DNA of 63,988 nt, the filler included, from Diploschistes diacapsis (taxonomy: Eukaryota): the NCBI GenBank assembly GCA_023645945.1. It is 5 parts of 5 records of this genome, joined end to end, with 100 filler letters (N's around TTAATTAATTAA, not from the genome) between each part and the next. Parts side by side here need not be neighbours in the genome. Positions count along the whole stretch, not along the records: positions 56,981 to 63,988 come from JALAIB010001321.1; 4 more parts are not named here. One strand, given 5' to 3'. The translations under genes were made by a program, and so were the position numbers. This document shows, piece by piece, positions 8,412 through 63,988 of the stretch. Numbering within the stretch: position 1 is the first letter of the stretch; every line of letters begins with the position of its first letter. The notes beneath the pieces are model-generated. The model was not told the origin of the DNA. It worked only from the letters and a program-made list of their open reading frames with translations, and did no database searches.

Positions 8412-8511
8412 NNNNNNNNNNNNNNNNNNNNNNNNNNNNNNNNNNNNNNNNNNNNTTAATTAATTAANNNNNNNNNNNNNNNNNNNNNNNNNNNNNNNNN
8501 NNNNNNNNNNN
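8412..8511. other. Artificial contig spacer (N44-TTAATTAATTAA-N44)
   Basis: Identical 100-nt block with a six-frame stop linker occurs four times. Confidence 0.97.
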
Positions 8512-51311: not shown

Positions 51312-53165
51312 TTACACATACTCCGCATGCACCTCCCCGTAGTTCGTTCCCTGGAACCAAAGCTCGTACTTCGTAAACGCCGACAGGAACGTAATCCGCA
51401 CCTCCAGCTTCACCTCGAGGTACCACTTCCCGTCCTTCCCCCTCTTCCTCGGGATCATCTCGGGCGGCACTCCGCTCAGGTCCGCGCGCACGGTCGCCAG
51501 CTTCCTCACGCGCTCGTCGCAATACGCTGGCGGCGACGCTCCGGAACCTTGGGCCTCTCCGCTCCCATCTGGGTCCGCCTCCGCGCCCCCAGCCGCAGCA
51601 GCAGTCGCAGCCCCGTCGTCGGCGCAAGAGTAGATGTCCAGCGCGCAATCCTCCAACCCCTCCACGTCCAGCTCATTATGCAGGTAGAAGGCCTGCCGCA
51701 GCGGTTTCTGCTCCTCCACCACGTCGTTCCTGTGCAGGAACCACTTCATCATCGTGACGCGGTGGGCCTTGTCGAAGTCGGACCACCACTTCCGGTCGCT
51801 GGGGTGCTTCGCGGCGTTGTAGGGATAGTGCAGCTTGTAGCCGTAGTGCTTGCGGGCTTTGCGGGCGCTGATGCGGACGGAGCCTGGGCTGGAAGGGCTG
51901 TGGGAGGCGAGGCCCATCATTAGGGCGCCGCGGACGACGGCGGTCCAACTGTGCGGGGATTGCATGACAGTTGTGCTGGTGTTGGCGACGGAGGCTTGGA
52001 TTTTCGAGCGCAGGTATTGACTCTGGCCGAACCCGCCGACAAGGAGAATGGTGGAAACTGGTTTTTCCGCGGCTTTGATCTGCTGCGTAACAAGGGCGAT
52101 GACCTCTTCGACTATGGGTTCGAAACATTGCTCAACGTCACGGCCAGTCACTCGGAGCTTTCCTCGTCGGATTCCTTTCTCCGCGTCGTCCTCAAGACCG
52201 ATCACAGGGACTTGGAACTGCTCGTCACCAACGCCGGCAAAAGTGCGCTTGATAACCCGCTCGAACTTCTCCGAAATATCCTCAAGAATCTCATCATCCC
52301 AGTGTGGGTCATTAGAGAGTTTGTCTTTGATCGTCTCTTGAAATCGACGGTTGATGAAGGAGGAACCGCAGAGAGCTCCGGCGCCTGATGTGACCTCGGA
52401 GATATTGAGAATAGGCTCAAGTTGGTCAACTTCGTAGGTGATGACATCCACCGTTCCACCCCCCGCATCGACCAGCATGAAGGTATCGCTGACCTTCAAG
52501 TTGTGTGGGCTCAAAGAGTGAAGAGCGAACACAGCAGCGGCTTCCGGTTCGGCTACCATATGCACTTTGCCCATTCCAGCTCGCTGGGCAGCCGCTTTAG
52601 TTTTGGCCTTTGCATTGTCGCTCCAGATTGCGGGCACCGTCATTAGGTACTCGACTGGTATATTTGTAAGTGCAGAGGTTGGGATCTTGTTCCGTAAGAT
52701 CTGTTCTGCATGCTTTCTGAGCACCTCAAGAAAATCGCTAATCACTCGTTCAGGTGTAATGTCGTAACCTGGCGGAAGCTCTCTATGGTCTACTAGGCCT
52801 ACAACGGCGTTGGAGGCTTTGTAGTATTTCGACTCATCGAGCTCAAGCTTGAAGAATTGATGGCGCTGCTGAGATTCTAGAATTTGAAAGCCCCATTTAA
52901 CATCTTGTCCCTCATACCTGAGCTCTGTTGGAACCTTGTCCGAAGACTGTCCTTCATGTCCTTGCGAAAAGAGAGTCGGCCACAATGTTATCACCTCTTG
53001 TATGTCGGGTTTGCTGGCCTGTGCCCACGCTATTGCCGAGTGAGTGGTGCCAAAGTCGACAGCCACAAGTATCTTTCGAGGAGCGTTTCCGCTAGAGGCC
53101 ATAGGAGACTCCCGCATAGTCCCTAGAATGTCAGCGCTCTCAAAGACCGATAAGGATATACTCAT
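51312..53165 (-). CDS. Hsp70-family actin-like ATPase (fungal HSPA12-like)
   Basis: VAVDFGTTHS, TVPAIWS, EPEAAA, VDAGGGTVD, LVGGFGQSQYL, AVVRGA; no canonical substrate-binding lid. Confidence 0.9.
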   Translation of the reverse strand: MSISLSVFESADILGTMRESPMASSGNAPRKILVAVDFGTTHSAIAWAQASKPDIQEVITLWPTLFSQGHEGQSSDKVPTELRYEGQDVKWGFQILESQQRHQFFKLELDESKYYKASNAVVGLVDHRELPPGYDITPERVISDFLEVLRKHAEQILRNKIPTSALTNIPVEYLMTVPAIWSDNAKAKTKAAAQRAGMGKVHMVAEPEAAAVFALHSLSPHNLKVSDTFMLVDAGGGTVDVITYEVDQLEPILNISEVTSGAGALCGSSFINRRFQETIKDKLSNDPHWDDEILEDISEKFERVIKRTFAGVGDEQFQVPVIGLEDDAEKGIRRGKLRVTGRDVEQCFEPIVEEVIALVTQQIKAAEKPVSTILLVGGFGQSQYLRSKIQASVANTSTTVMQSPHSWTAVVRGALMMGLASHSPSSPGSVRISARKARKHYGYKLHYPYNAAKHPSDRKWWSDFDKAHRVTMMKWFLHRNDVVEEQKPLRQAFYLHNELDVEGLEDCALDIYSCADDGAATAAAAGGAEADPDGSGEAQGSGASPPAYCDERVRKLATVRADLSGVPPEMIPRKRGKDGKWYLEVKLEVRITFLSAFTKYELWFQGTNYGEVHAEYV

Positions 53166-53772
53166 ACAACGCGCAGTATACAGAGCACCTTGAATGCCCG
53201 ACCACAGATCATCAAATATCCAAAGCGTAGAAATACTGGGAAGGGATGCTTACTAGAAATGGGAACAGCTGTGTAAGTGTTTGTGTACACATCAAACCCT
53301 TTGACGCAGAACAATGACAGATAATTAAGGGCGTGCACAGCAAACAATGGAGCAGCCACCAAACACGATAACAAAAGTCAAGGCCGCAACACTTGAACAT
53401 GGATACATAGAAAGCCCTTGTTCTATATCGCTTTTTGGCAACTTCTGCACCATAACTCTGTTGTAACATCGGTCGAAAATTTTCAACATCAAGCAAAAAA
53501 TGGGGACCTTATAGTGTTCCCTTTGCACATGAGTTAACCCTATTTGAGCAAATGTAGAAAGACAATTTCAGAGTCTGATGAGGCAAATCCTCCAGATGAC
53601 ACGAGAAACGACCAGATTTAAGACCAGAATTGGGGAAGAGGAGATGAACTAGACAACCAAAGCCGCAGATATTAATCGCATTTTTCGAGATACTACCTCA
53701 ATCTAAAAACAAGGTTTTGAGTCAATATTCAGTATGTGAGCTCGACAAACTCGAGCAAGGTAAGAAGCAGCA

Positions 53773-58653: not shown

Positions 58654-58739
58654 TGATAGGAACAGCATAAACCCAACTTCTATCTATCAAACAATCCAAA
58701 AGGAGAATGACGTCGTTGCTGATGTGCAACCTCTTCCCT

Positions 58740-59810
58740 TATGCTGTGGCGACGCGCTGGAGGGAAGATAGAGGACCTAGGGATCGGCTATGCTACCCGA
58801 AATGTACGTAGGCAAGCTTCCTCCTCAACTCTAAATTCCAAATTCCAGGCACAGATTTCTTCGCTGAGACGCAGAAACACAATATCAGCCAAGTAAGGCG
58901 ACAATAACTGCGCTCTCCAGTCGACAACTGCGCCCCCCCGACTTTGTATTTCGTGCAGCCGGGCCGTCATCGGCTGGCATCAATAAGCGTGATGGTATCA
59001 TCGCCGGCCTGTACAGAAAGACATCAATCGACCAGATCCCTAATCAGAACGATGTCGGACTCCCTGGAGGAAATGGTCACTGTCGTCCCCGCAATTCGCA
59101 CCCATGACCGCAAGCCATTTCCACATGCGGAGCCGCAGCGTGGATCTCCACGACGCCTTTCCTCAAAAAGGCCTTGAATTCTCTGTACAAGCACAACAAA
59201 TAACTTGGCACCCTTTCCGTGATCCGGATTCGAGACTGCCAGGATATGTATGAGGCGTCGGCCGTTACCAATGCACTTCCGCGTTCGGAGCAAGATTAGC
59301 TAGGCCACAAATGGCTGGCCTAGAGGATTTTGGTAGGGGCGACTGATGGGTATGTCGTATATGGAAAGATTCCGGCCAATGCCATCTTTGCGGCGGTTTC
59401 TGCATCCAAGTTCTTGAAGTGCCGGGAGATGCATATACTCTGGCCCCCTATAAATGTTAGTGTGGCAGTGAGTAGGGAGCCGATGCCGGCAATGAGGGCG
59501 GATACCACCAAGGACCGATTCTCGGTTTTGCTCCGGCGCTTGTGAAAGCCGCGCTCAATCTTGTTTCCCGGTTTGAAGATATTGGACGAATATTGCTTCT
59601 TCCGGATCGTTCGTGTGCTCTTGGGATCGAGTTTCTGGAACCACTACCAAGAACTTGTTGATGGGCCATGGGGTACACAATCAGATCCGAGAATACCTAA
59701 GGACAAAGGCGCAGAGCAGAGATATTGGACCTCGGAAGAGTTTGGTGCAGCAGATGCGGTTCTGGAAGACGCGATGATTGTTGAAAGTAGGGGAGTGCTG
59801 AATATTTGTT
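58740..59810 (+). pseudogene. Decayed paralog of the ART-like gene at 60370-61474
   Basis: LRSPVD...FVFRAAGPSSAGIN..DGIIAGLYR, WISTTP, GTLSVIRIRDC, TDGYVVYGKIPANAI, WPP, FRIVRVLL in shifting frames with stops; same intron position (YPK|gtacgt vs YPR|gtaagt). Confidence 0.85.
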
Positions 59811-60369
59811 CAATGCCTTTGACCGTGCAAGAGTGCTGACTGATGCACTGCAACTGACAAGCTGATGATGGCGCGTGTACGCTATAGACAGGTGACCGAG
59901 AAGACCAGATATTCAGGCATGCTCTTGTAAGGCTTTTCAACTAAAGCGCTATCCTAGGTGGTATTAAATGTATCCAGCCGCAAATGAAAAGCGAAGCCAT
60001 ACCATATTGGGGTAAACACGATATCTCTGCGCCAATAATCGAGTCATCCACCAAAAGTCACAGCATCAACATGACAAGCACAGCTTGAGGGGATCATGAC
60101 ACTCTCGAAACCCTATGATTGAGCAGATATATCGACTCAACCGACGTGAGGAACATGAACCACTCAGCAGCCTGCGTACTTCTCGGATTGACTGGTATGA
60201 TTGCTATTTCTCCAACAGCCCTTCATGGCATCTTCAATTCACAGTACATTCCAGATAGCCATCAATTCCAGCGTACGCCAAGCACAAAGCAAATTCCATC
60301 AAAGTCTCTTGGAATATCAAGACTTGCCTTCGCTCTAACAAAGGGAGAGAAAAAACCAACGATAACAAG

Positions 60370-61474
60370 ATGTTTCCAGTCTTTGGACCGGGCGCTCTCA
60401 GGGGTGGAGGCTTCGGCGGCGGACGTCGTGGTGGTGGAGGCTTTGGTAGGGGAGGTGGGGGACCTATGCAGGCCATGAATAGTGTCTGGATGGGACCTAG
60501 AGCGCCTCAACACGCGAACTGGTACCCAAGATGTAAGTTTCGAGACTTTCTTTGCTCGATCCTCGACCACACATACCCAATTCACTCATGAGAACGTAGT
60601 TAAAAGCAAAATCACTAGAGAGGAACTCCGGTCTCCAACCGATCGATGGGCATGTTCCGAGTTTGTGTTCCGCGCCGCTGGCCCTACTTCTGCAGGCATC
60701 AATACACCAAATGGTCTTGTAGCAGGAATGTACCGAAACGTGCCAATTGACGATGTCCCCAACCTGGATGCCGTTGGGACCCCAGGTAACAGATGGTCGA
60801 TGCCGCTGGATTTCTTCGAGGATGTGACCATGTCCCACTTTGGCAAGCTGAACCCTGCACCCACGCCATGGATCTCGACAACACCGTCGCTGCGCAAGGC
60901 TTTGATGTTTCTGGTGGAGTACGCCGCGCAGGATGGAACCCTTTTCGTCATTCGGATACGCGACTGCCCGGATATATATGATGCACCGGTCGTTACAGAG
61001 GCGCTCCCCAGAATCAAGCACGAGCTGAGACCCAAATGGGAAGAACTTCTGGAATTCGAGGGTTGGACCGATGAATATGTGGCGTTTGGGAAGATTCCGA
61101 GTCGTGCCATAGCTGCCACGATCCCCGCGCAAAGGCTTTTGAACTGCGCAGCAATATACAAGGTCTGGCCTCCTATGTTATCCTGCTTCCGAGGGGCCGG
61201 TAACCTGCCTCCAGTTGTGCAAGCCGCGAGGGGAACACTTGCTATAATCGACAGAGGCAATCCGCCAGATCTCACAACGAGGATTATACAGGATGCTGTT
61301 GATGTCGTCTCCAATTTCGAAGGCGCAAATGAGGAAACTTTCTTCTGGGTTGTCCGTGTGCTTCTGGCGGACGATTTTGGCAATCCGTACGAAGAACGAC
61401 GTGATCGTGAACGAGTGGAGGATGCTGTATTGCAGTGCCTTGTAAGGAGAGCAGGGTTAGACGGTATATCTTGA
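60370..61474 (+). CDS. RGG-rich N-terminus fused to a putative R-S-E ADP-ribosyltransferase-fold domain (~345 aa)
   Basis: Exon 1 60370-60532, GT-AG intron 60533-60599, exon 2 60600-61474 in frame; motifs FVFRA, PWISTT, TDEYVAFGKIP.RAI. Confidence 0.75.
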
Positions 61475-61724: not shown

Positions 61725-63081
61725 TCATACTGCGTTCAACGTGTCGTACCGAATGGTGCCTTGTCGAGGTAAATGTAATGTTTCTCTGCTGAAAATCGAG
61801 CCATCCCTGTCAGTCAAGCTCCCTTCGCTTGAGCTTCCTACAACTCTGGTCATGAAAGGGGTTGTAGAGATCGACAAGTCTATGTGTGGTGCCTGATCCG
61901 ACTGGCGGCTCGAGCGACCCGAAGAACTAGAAGGCGTAGCCAACGGCTTTTGCTCTTCTGCAGCTTGCATGTGAGCAGCGATCGATTTTCTCCTTGGGTA
62001 ACTTGAATGGCCTCGCACAAGGCGCACCAATGGCCTGAGAGTTGGTACACAGCCACATATGATGCCGGTGTTGACCTCTAGGATACTGAATAGAAAGCTC
62101 ATACCGGCCTTCCAAGTTCGATCGTACGACGTGAGATCGGCCGTGGCCAATGCCCATCGAATGAGTGCAACGGCGAAGGCGACCAGGCCGACCAGAAACA
62201 CAAAAGATAGTAGAACCTTGTCCCTTTTGTTAAACTTCATATGCCAGATGATAGGCATAGGTAACACTGCTATGGCAAGATCTGAAATAACACTCATCGC
62301 GCCCCACGCAATGTCCGGAGCAACCAAGGAGATACAGGTACCCGGAAGATTCGGTTCGTAATATTTTTCGATCGGAGTGCAGCTGGCAATCTGAAGAATC
62401 ATATTACTGATCAGATAAGCAGTGTTAAAGCCCATCACAGCCCAGCAAGTCCATATGAATCGTTTGTGGACCCAAAAGACGCGAATATAAAAAAGAAGAA
62501 TGGCAGTCTGTACATTGTTAATATGCCACGAGGTTGAAGTTTGCTAAGTCTGTTACCTTGTATCCGAGAAGACTCAAGGCATAGAATTCAGAAGATATCA
62601 TGATCCACTGGGAGACGTTAGCTATGGATTTTGGAATCTATCGGAAGTATCGCAGCACACCTTGTAGTACTCTGAATACAGAGCTGGTGTAATATTCCAT
62701 ATGTGCATTCCCATACCATGGTGGGTCGCTGGAGCATTATTAGCCGTCATTCAAAGACCAGGGTCCTATAAGCGACGTACTTATTCCGATGCAAACACTG
62801 AAAGCAATGGACGAGATCTAAGACATTTAGAGCTCTCCCTCTTCTACTGAAGACGGACAAGATCAAACCAAGGTAAGTATAGTAACCCCTAAGACAGCGG
62901 CTTAGTATGAGCCACAGAGAAAGTATGAAGGTAGAATACAATCATCAGCCCCAAAAAAATGCACAATGCCCGCCCTTGTCCAGACCCTCAGAGCAACAAA
63001 AACAGCAGAAATGATAGGAAATATAATGGCAACACTTGTAATGGCTGGACCACGAGTCTCGATGTTCGACGGTGCTGCCAT
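61725..63081 (-). CDS. PTH11-like (rhodopsin-domain, no CFEM) integral membrane protein
   Basis: RGPAI...FVALRVWTR...FGADD, HGMGMHIW, AILLFYIRVF, C.PI, SDLAIAVLPMP.IW, LEVNTGIICGCVPTLRPL; multiple introns. Confidence 0.88.
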
Positions 63082-63988
63082 AGCAATTGAGTTCAGAAAC
63101 ACTTGGGTTTGCGATTTCAATACTAAGATTCATGCTATCATAGAGAAGCTAATGAAGGTATTTCTGGTCTTTGAAAGGTACTTGAAAAGGAAACATGTAT
63201 ACATGATTATCATGAGAATGAAAGTGATTCCAGAGCAACAGATCGTTTTGGAGCTCCCGCATTGTACGGCCTGTTATAGAATTTTAGTGTTGCAAAGTTA
63301 TTAACAACAAAAGCACAGCAGCAGCATCCTAGGGCTGTGCCATGCTGAGTGAGCTCCTTTCAAAACAGCCAAGATGGCATAGAATGGCGTGCAGTAGGAT
63401 AATTTCCCGTTCAATCAATGTTAATTGCGCAATACACCTTGCGCCATCGCTAAGTTGGTAGTCTCGAGAGCCTTTGTGGATGCCTTCGCGGGTGCTGCAG
63501 TTGGGACTTTGGGGATGCAATGTCATGCTCCATGCTTGAGGGCACGAGCATGCATCCAGTTACTTAAATTTCAACTGGCACAAATAGCGGGACTGGCCTT
63601 CACAAACTTGTAAGGGACCATTGAGCATCTCCTCGATTTCACTCTTCAGCTCAGAGAGAGGCCGTCAGATGTCTCAGCTGGAGCTTTTCCGGGCTTAGTC
63701 AGTAAGCGACTTCGCCCCATCCGTGCTTTTTGTAGCTAAGTACCGACAGGCAATTGGTAAGGCTCAATCCAACTCTAATGCCCCCTGACTGAGGGTCCAC
63801 AGGTGGGTGCATTGTAGACCCCTGCGACCACAACTTCATGCTATTATAAGGCATTGGAGCATACATGACTGGGATGCAATTTTGGTGAGCAACCCAAAGC
63901 CTAGCAATGTTCTGCCGTGGAGATACTACTCTCCACATTTCACGAGACCCCCTAGCCCGCCACATTCTCCGCCCTCCTCCCCCCATCC

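Follow-up and report, generated by a model that had tools for sequence, protein, structure and literature searches.

The question raised by this locus is whether a fungus encodes, for use inside its own cells, an enzyme resembling the ADP-ribosyltransferase (ART) toxins of bacteria. The window, that is, the whole stretch of DNA that was analysed (63,988 nucleotides of Diploschistes diacapsis, assembly GCA_023645945.1), contains at positions 60370 to 61474 a gene whose predicted product joins a tail with arginine-glycine-glycine (RGG) triplets to a domain of the Pfam family DUF7587. This domain very probably adopts an ART fold with an intact-looking site of arginine, histidine, serine-threonine and glutamate (R/H/S-T/E). 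The gene and its core domain are arranged as follows:

60370..60532 (+), exon 1 (163 nt), with the start codon, 54 codons and the first base of a split codon; it encodes a disordered, Gly/Arg-rich N-terminus

60533..60599 (+), predicted phase-1 intron of 67 nt, GTAAGT...CTCAT...TAG, deduced from splice signals, the need for a start codon, a paralogue and a frame test on a homologue

60600..61474 (+), exon 2, with 290 full codons from 60602 and the stop codon TGA at 61472-61474; its translation is called P0001

60659..61135 (+), DUF7587 domain, the predicted ART core, P0001 residues 20-178, identified by a Pfam match and by the fold matches of a structural model

The spliced product would have about 345 residues. 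The protein-level analyses (domain search, fold and alignments) used the exon 2 translation P0001 alone, and residue numbers refer to it unless exon 1 or the spliced protein is named.

The assignment of the domain starts from a sequence family and is extended by the predicted structure. Exon 2 matched the Pfam model DUF7587 (PF24494) with 58.4 bits (cutoff 27) and an E-value of 1.2e-15, covering profile positions 4-145 of 146, and the same model was matched by 22 of 22 aligned relatives. A full-text search of the literature found no mention of 'DUF7587' or 'PF24494'. The AlphaFold2 model, built from a 22-sequence alignment, reached a predicted local distance difference test (pLDDT) score of 87.6 and a predicted template modelling (pTM) score of 0.86, with residues 1-17 disordered. 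Structure prediction followed by a Foldseek comparison with ART folds, which a preliminary description of this DNA had proposed as a check, placed ARTs of the cholera and pertussis toxin group on top. Among the PDB matches listed by Foldseek, nearly all were cholera toxin (CT) A1, heat-labile enterotoxin (LT), pertussis toxin (PT) S1, PltA/PltC or CARDS toxin, together with one row for TreX; the best E-value was 4.7e-4 and two matches had E <= 0.001. Alignment of the model with VIA-align gave Z 9.5 for PT S1 (root mean square deviation 2.7 Å, 123 residues, 17% identity), 9.4 for EcPltA, 8.9 for LT-IIB, 8.0 for the Rhs toxin TreX and 7.8 for Tpt1/KptA. When representative chains were searched independently of Foldseek, the top 11 of 48,161 were all ARTs and just 16 chains had Z >= 5. 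The ART matches at the top of the fold searches spanned Z 9.5-5.8, with the cholera/pertussis group leading two of these searches at Z 9.5-8.8, and the weight of the fold argument lies in this uniform match list and not in the Z value by itself. A protein language model pointed the same way: eight of the nine neighbours outside DUF7587 among the matches listed were ART families (Lart1, NarE, ArtA, YtxA, CtxA, Tse2 and scabin-related), and families of the enterotoxin, pertussis and scabin types were neighbours at 0.83-0.92. The split beta-sheet ART fold of the cholera/pertussis group is thus predicted for the DUF7587 domain.

If the fold is that of an ART, the residues that serve catalysis in the toxins should be recognisable. 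The preliminary description had reported the motifs F-V-F-R, W-I-S-T-T and D-E-Y in that order, and they stand in this order in P0001, at residues 21-24, 90-94 and 157-159. Conservation was read from a 32-sequence alignment, and sequences gapped at a position were left out of its count:

60671..60673 (+), codon of R24 (F-V-F-R, strand 1); R in 17 of 18 relatives, the exception being a fragment

60836..60838 (+), codon of H79; H in 31 of 31

60875..60883 (+), codons of S92-T93-T94 (W-I-S-T-T); S in 31 of 31, T in 30 of 31, and T, S or A in 24, 5 and 2, respectively

61073..61075 (+), codon of E158 (T-D-E-Y), the candidate catalytic Glu; E in 27 of 27

In the secondary structure assigned to the model by DSSP, R24 lies in strand 21-26, S-T-T ends strand 90-94 and is followed by helix 97-107, and E158 just precedes strand 159-162. 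The toxin used for comparison was LT-A in its natural form, taken from the record of an E. coli plasmid. Its alignment by hhalign put W-I-S-T-T on V-S-T-S and D-E-Y-V-A-F-G-K-I-P on Q-E-V-S-A-L-G-G-I-P, a register in which S92 falls on S61 of LT-A, the motif Ser of S-T-S, and E158 on E112, the second Glu of E-Q-E. The structural alignments by VIA started with model residue 18 on residue 1 of CT/LT and model residue 17 on residue 2 of PT S1; by this offset R24 falls at what is presumably the N-terminal catalytic Arg of the toxins (R7/R9). H79 would be the counterpart of the active-site His of CT, LT and PT. These alignments suggest that R24, S92-T93-T94 and E158 correspond to the catalytic positions of the cholera/pertussis group, and in the model R, S and E would cluster in one cleft.

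The signature R...STS/STT...E, by which the preliminary description had recognised an ART, was therefore borne out in part. The R, S-T-T and E are conserved (17/18, 31/31 for the Ser, and 27/27) and correspond to the catalytic positions of the cholera/pertussis group, but the first Q/E of the ADP-ribosylating turn-turn (ARTT) motif, present in pierisin, scabin, CT and LT, is missing. Likewise, D-E-Y proved to contain a conserved Glu of the catalytic type, residue 158, but within T-D-E and not within the classical [QE]-x-E. N or D immediately precedes this Glu in 22 of 27 sequences, and the position two residues before it is unconstrained (P in 7, A in 3, R in 3, T, I, L and S in 2 each, and V, W, N and Q in 1 each, of 25).

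The fold and the active site belong to exon 2, and the next question is how this exon acquires a start codon. The frame of exon 2 is open from 60479 and has no ATG until M43, which is C-terminal of the Arg motif F-V-F-R, so an exon further upstream has to supply the start codon. Direct reading of the sequence shows an ATG at 60370-60372 (+), with A at -3, from which an uninterrupted frame begins. The donor GTAAGT starts at 60533, the 3′ end of the intron reads CTCATGAGAACGTAG at 60599 (ACGTAG context), a yTnAy-type CTCAT sits 12 nt 5′ of the intron AG, and the codon T|TT split by the junction keeps the join in phase. In a stop-to-stop listing of open reading frames (ORFs) the two pieces appear in separate frames, at 60259..60591 and 60479..61474, which accounts for the remark in the preliminary description that the ORF track had missed the join. 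The 67-nt GT-AG intron that it had placed between the Gly/Arg-rich exon and the domain is backed by the donor, by the in-phase join and by the agreement of a homologue and a paralogue. Judged from such sequence signals, it is highly probable that the RGG exon is spliced to exon 2.

The homologue is P0004, the closest one, which is 52% identical and has been predicted as an ORF that reads through the intron. Its N-terminus was back-translated into all possible codons and read at the frame offset of exon 1. In this shifted frame it agreed with the ten residues that end exon 1 at 9 of 10 positions, and a Val-Ser pair, a possible GTN AGY donor, follows immediately. Among 17,601 control positions (all proteins of the analysis, both shifts), none reached 9 and one reached 8, the sole 10/10 being the window's own ORF. 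With a match of 9/10 in P0004 directly before Val-Ser, the frame test speaks for conservation of exon 1, of its frame and of the phase-1 intron in another species. The shifted frame also permits Gly at 6 of 10 positions upstream of the matched peptide, so P0004 would be Gly-rich there as well. The paralogue lies on the same contig:

58708..59662 (+), degraded tandem paralogue, about 0.7 kb upstream on the same strand, found by tblastn and DNA alignment

By tblastn it is 37% identical over 276 columns and carries five in-frame stops. The segment with the invariant His is deleted and Gly stands at the position of E158; F-V-F-R and W-I-S-T-T are retained. The DNA alignment shows that the contexts of both the donor (TACCC.A.ATGTA.GT) and the acceptor (ACG.AG) have been kept.

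The upstream exon brings with it the feature that distinguishes the predicted protein:

60400..60462 (+), RGG/GAR (glycine-arginine-rich) box, R11 to G31 of the spliced protein, with three in-frame RGG triplets and FG spacers

The triplets begin at 60400, 60427 and 60448, each in frame with the ATG, and the 54-residue peptide of exon 1 contains 18 Gly and 6 Arg. An RGG/GAR box is defined by at least two RGG triplets spaced by 0-4 residues (di-RGG); here R20-G-G and R27-G-G are separated by four residues, and R11-G-G lies six residues earlier. The Gly codons are mixed (GGA 7, GGC 5, GGT 5 and GGG 1), as are the Arg codons, and Tandem Repeats Finder reported no DNA repeat at the box (0 rows). 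The use of four Gly codons together with the lack of a DNA repeat indicates that the Gly richness exists at the peptide level and is not that of a microsatellite. RGG-coding words occur at 85 sites window-wide against 57 expected, a count that is uninformative as a statistic. A close homologue, P0007, has its Gly-rich tail at the C-terminus instead. A paper on AACRNL (PMC12957317) was considered as a related case and set aside; according to its available text, the ART that it deals with is of the diphtheria-toxin-like H-Y-Y type, and 'RGG' there refers to the tail of ubiquitin.

Another property that separates the predicted protein from the toxins is its apparent location. The best mean Kyte-Doolittle hydropathy over ten residues in exon 1 is 1.33, with no hydrophobic core, and the N-termini of ten relatives range from 0.6 to 1.26. 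Neither exon 1 nor the relatives thus show a signal-peptide-like N-terminus, in agreement with the absence of a signal peptide noted in the preliminary description. The features of an AB5-type toxin were not found either, the N-terminal hydropathy maximum being 1.33 and the 7-kb contig containing no B-subunit ORF. An ORF at 60155-60274 (+), which begins 215 nt before the start codon, has a hydrophobic, signal-peptide-like start (10-residue hydropathy 2.3); from its sequence it may be an upstream ORF within the leader, while an additional 5′ exon is the less likely option.

Taken together, the explanation that we favour, and that we regard as fairly probable as a whole, is an active R-S-E (cholera/pertussis-like) transferase inside the fungal cell that carries an RGG tail. 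The gene would encode a non-secreted protein of about 345 residues, composed of a 54-residue disordered RGG/GAR tail, the DUF7587 domain as a divergent R-S-E ART and a small helical bundle. NAD+ would be held in a cleft formed by strand 1 with R24, the strand-helix turn of S92-T93-T94 and H79. E158, where the next core strand begins, would activate the bond between nicotinamide and ribose, and ADP-ribose would then be passed to a macromolecular acceptor in the fungal cell, or the bond would be hydrolysed. For the acceptor, a rough split gives even chances to a protein and divides the remainder equally between a nucleic acid on one side and, on the other, NAD+ hydrolysis only or no acceptor. 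The tail might provide a low-specificity association with RNA, with ribonucleoprotein (RNP) particles or with the nucleolus, and perhaps bind poly(ADP-ribose); that it targets the enzyme to RNA or RNPs is a tentative proposal, and on balance a doubtful one.

Several findings weigh against this explanation. In Pfam searches with the protein and its 22 relatives no named ART family was matched at E <= 10, save DarT at 0.045 in one member, and the Enterotoxin_a, Pertussis_S1 and Scabin-like models gave no match at that threshold for the same sequences. Searches of PDB chain sequences, whether with the single protein or with a profile, returned no ART. The family is small, with 22 representatives at E <= 0.001 among 1.84 billion. 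The target-normalised TM-scores from Foldseek are only 0.42-0.47, and the Z of 9.5 is modestly above the 7-8 that VIA-align states to be common background. The hhalign statistics for LT-A are weak (E 0.013-0.021, probability 2-3%), and the alignment leaves the Arg motif uncovered; [QE]-x-E is absent, T-D-E with T156 standing in its place. As regards the tail, eleven metagenome loci of a distant subfamily carry another short first exon without RGG, and exon 1 of the paralogue also has none. Because it is absent from both, the RGG tail would be dispensable for the function of the family. The neighbouring copy, moreover, is dead.

Some of these findings would suit an ART fold without transferase activity, that is, a pseudoenzyme that binds NAD+/ADP-ribose or a partner, or else a pure NAD+ glycohydrolase. 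The classical [QE]-x-E is missing with the position two residues before the Glu unconstrained, the sequence models of active ART families do not match, and no macrodomain or ADP-ribosylhydrolase gene was found on the gene's contig or beside the DUF7587 genes at seven related metagenome loci. However, sequences that are just 20-50% identical keep R, H, S-T and E with little or no variation, which is the pattern of a working site, and the dead paralogue has lost exactly this Glu and the segment with the His. In other ART clades one catalytic Glu is enough, and an ART fold without transferase activity is considered improbable. The doubt may instead concern the tail, as the RGG exon would not form part of the mature protein if the gene were unexpressed or decaying, or if translation began at a later Met (M33, M36 or M41). 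Three further in-frame ATGs do lie downstream of the RGG box, the tail is of low complexity, and the distant relatives and the paralogue manage without it. Against this, the first ATG with its A at -3 opens an uninterrupted frame, the mixed Gly codons form no DNA repeat, the glycines permitted by the shifted frame of P0004 lie upstream of the conserved peptide, and the close homologue P0007 has a Gly-rich tail of its own, although at the other end; this alternative is quite improbable.

A more drastic alternative is a secreted toxin, made if an upstream exon beginning at ATG 60155 were spliced in frame, for example from the donor GTACGC at 60273 to the acceptor after CTAACAAAG at 60343. The upstream ORF has the hydropathy maximum of 2.3 given above, the 60273/60343 join is in frame and free of stops, with CTAAC as a perfect branch site, the closest relatives in structure are secreted toxins, and secreted LT-like proteins have been predicted in insect-killing fungi (PMC12099005, in the text available). 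Nevertheless, 42 in-frame joins were enumerated, among which one acceptable-looking candidate is expected by chance; GTACGC is an imperfect donor, and no more than about 5 nt separate the branch A from the AG. A hydrophobic N-terminus was present in none of ten relatives, and no similarity to the paralogue was seen upstream of the ATG. Secretion is thus very improbable, and the intracellular, RGG-tailed transferase remains the preferred reading. A bolder version of it would make the DUF7587 proteins fungal intracellular R-S-E ARTs that modify RNA (tRNA or rRNA) and not protein. The core would here be framed by an RGG box and a C-terminal bundle resembling YqeY and glutaminyl-tRNA synthetase (GlnRS), and the loss of [QE]-x-E would reflect a change of acceptor. 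The dead tandem copy and the presence of several copies per metagenome would point to birth-and-death evolution, as might be expected of a gene engaged in genetic conflict (antiviral defence, allorecognition or self-killing). This idea is speculative and is given little probability.

The bundle in question follows the ART core:

61187..61471 (+), C-terminal helical region, P0001 residues 196-290, conserved in the closest subfamily

When residues 196-290 were folded alone, they gave a helical bundle with pLDDT 80.2. Its fold matches were the N-terminal tRNA-binding subdomain of GlnRS (Z 7.1 for the human and 6.4 for the yeast protein) and YqeY (6.1 and 5.5), with unrelated helical domains at 6.8-5.5 interspersed and a best Foldseek E-value of 2.2. 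The GlnRS/YqeY-like, tRNA-binding resemblance suggested by the model is to be taken as a lead only. At the other end of exon 2, just after the splice site, the stretch E-L-R-S-P-T-D-R-W (P0001 residues 7-16, 60620-60649) is conserved in P0004, P0006 and P0007. AlphaFold predicts it to be disordered (pLDDT < 50), and it might act as a linear motif or have a regulatory role. A search for fused or longer forms of the family found none, and P0022 (2170 aa), the sole long weak relative, showed no Pfam domain at E <= 0.01, so that no hint comes from domain partners.

The surroundings of the gene are limited by the way in which the window is composed. It consists of contigs joined by N-runs around the six-frame stop spacer TTAATTAATTAA at 8456, 16951, 25436 and 56925, and the gene's own contig is 56981-63988 (JALAIB010001321.1). 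Because they lie on separate contigs, the genes before 56925 are not physical neighbours of the gene. They include an FAD oxidase, a nitrilase-type hydrolase, AA9, GH16, CDC20 and others, which point to a filamentous fungus only and say nothing of adjacency; one of these contigs also has a divergent Hsp70-like ORF of 645 aa at 51315-53249 (-), with a weak HSP70 match (6.2e-16, part of the profile). On the gene's own contig, a convergent neighbour at 61725-63129 (-) carries a fungal rhodopsin (PTH11-type membrane protein) domain (Pfam 2.1e-44), and the ORF 62902-63129 within this span looks like a further exon with a membrane-like N-terminus. Elsewhere, genes for NmrA-like/NAD(P)-binding Rossmann proteins are found 1-2 kb upstream of DUF7587 genes, at L005:698-1692 (-), L008:314-772 (-) and L013:186-644 (-). 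The second and third look like one locus, and there is no NmrA-like gene on the window's contig. With three loci of which two are probably identical, this association was considered too thin to use.

How, then, does this gene compare with the systems already described? R-S-E ARTs are classical bacterial toxins, and the best structural matches of the model are PT S1, PltA of E. coli and Salmonella (ArtA-type) and the A1 chains of CT and LT, with Z 9.5-7.5 over about 120 residues at 17-20% identity. The order of elements is common to the whole group, namely an Arg strand, a His, an S-T-[ST] strand followed by a helix and a Glu strand, and with LT-A there is in addition a local likeness around the Glu, E-[YV]-x-A-x-G-x-I-P. 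In contrast, the protein does not match the Pfam models of these toxins, has T-D-E where they have E-x-E or Q-x-E, and lacks a signal peptide, an A2 linker and a nearby B-subunit gene. It is the product of a eukaryotic, intron-containing gene and carries an N-terminal RGG tail and a C-terminal helical bundle. By its predicted fold and its residues it would work like an ART of the CT/PT group, while standing outside the enterotoxin, pertussis and scabin sequence families. Scabin, pierisin and MTX, which are DNA-targeting or related R-S-E ARTs, have in common with the model the ART fold (Z 6.6, 5.1 and 5.8, respectively) and the pattern R / S-T-[ST] / E, but the structural match is weaker than that to PT and PltA, and no sequence model matches. 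Scabin, pierisin and MTX use Q-x-E. Tpt1/KptA, the RNA 2′-phosphotransferase, has the core of the ART superfamily in common with the domain (Z 7.7-7.8 over about 89 residues) and acts on RNA; the match is confined to half of the domain, and the two do not share the R-S-E residues, the active-site constellation of Tpt1/KptA being a different one.

Among fungi, secreted heat-labile-enterotoxin-like ARTs have been predicted in the entomopathogens Beauveria and Metarhizium (PMC12099005), and a comparative survey lists a Tox-ART-RSE group for ascomycetes (PMC3482391). As far as the available text of these two papers goes, these are likewise fungal R-S-E ART folds, probably of bacterial ancestry; the entomopathogen proteins are secreted and of the enterotoxin-type family, whereas the protein described here is an RGG-tailed member of DUF7587 that lacks a secretion signal. 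The accessible part of a 2026 review counts only four fungal writers of ADP-ribosylation as described, two poly(ADP-ribose) polymerases, Tpt1 and one sirtuin (PMC13720257). None of these four is a cholera-toxin-like ART. The gene offers a testable candidate for such an enzyme within the fungal cell, and the analysis suggests what a Pfam domain so far without an assigned function might do. The tail, finally, is alike in composition and spacing to the RGG/GAR tails of the fibrillarin/Nop1, Gar1, nucleolin and FUS type, with three RGG, F-G spacers and two triplets four residues apart. Compared with those nucleolar and RNA-binding tails, it is short (about 21 residues) and is joined to an enzyme of predicted ART fold. 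If it is true that the tail directs the enzyme to RNA or RNP bodies, the gene would be a natural case of a eukaryote that has turned a toxin-type ART to nucleic-acid or RNP biology.

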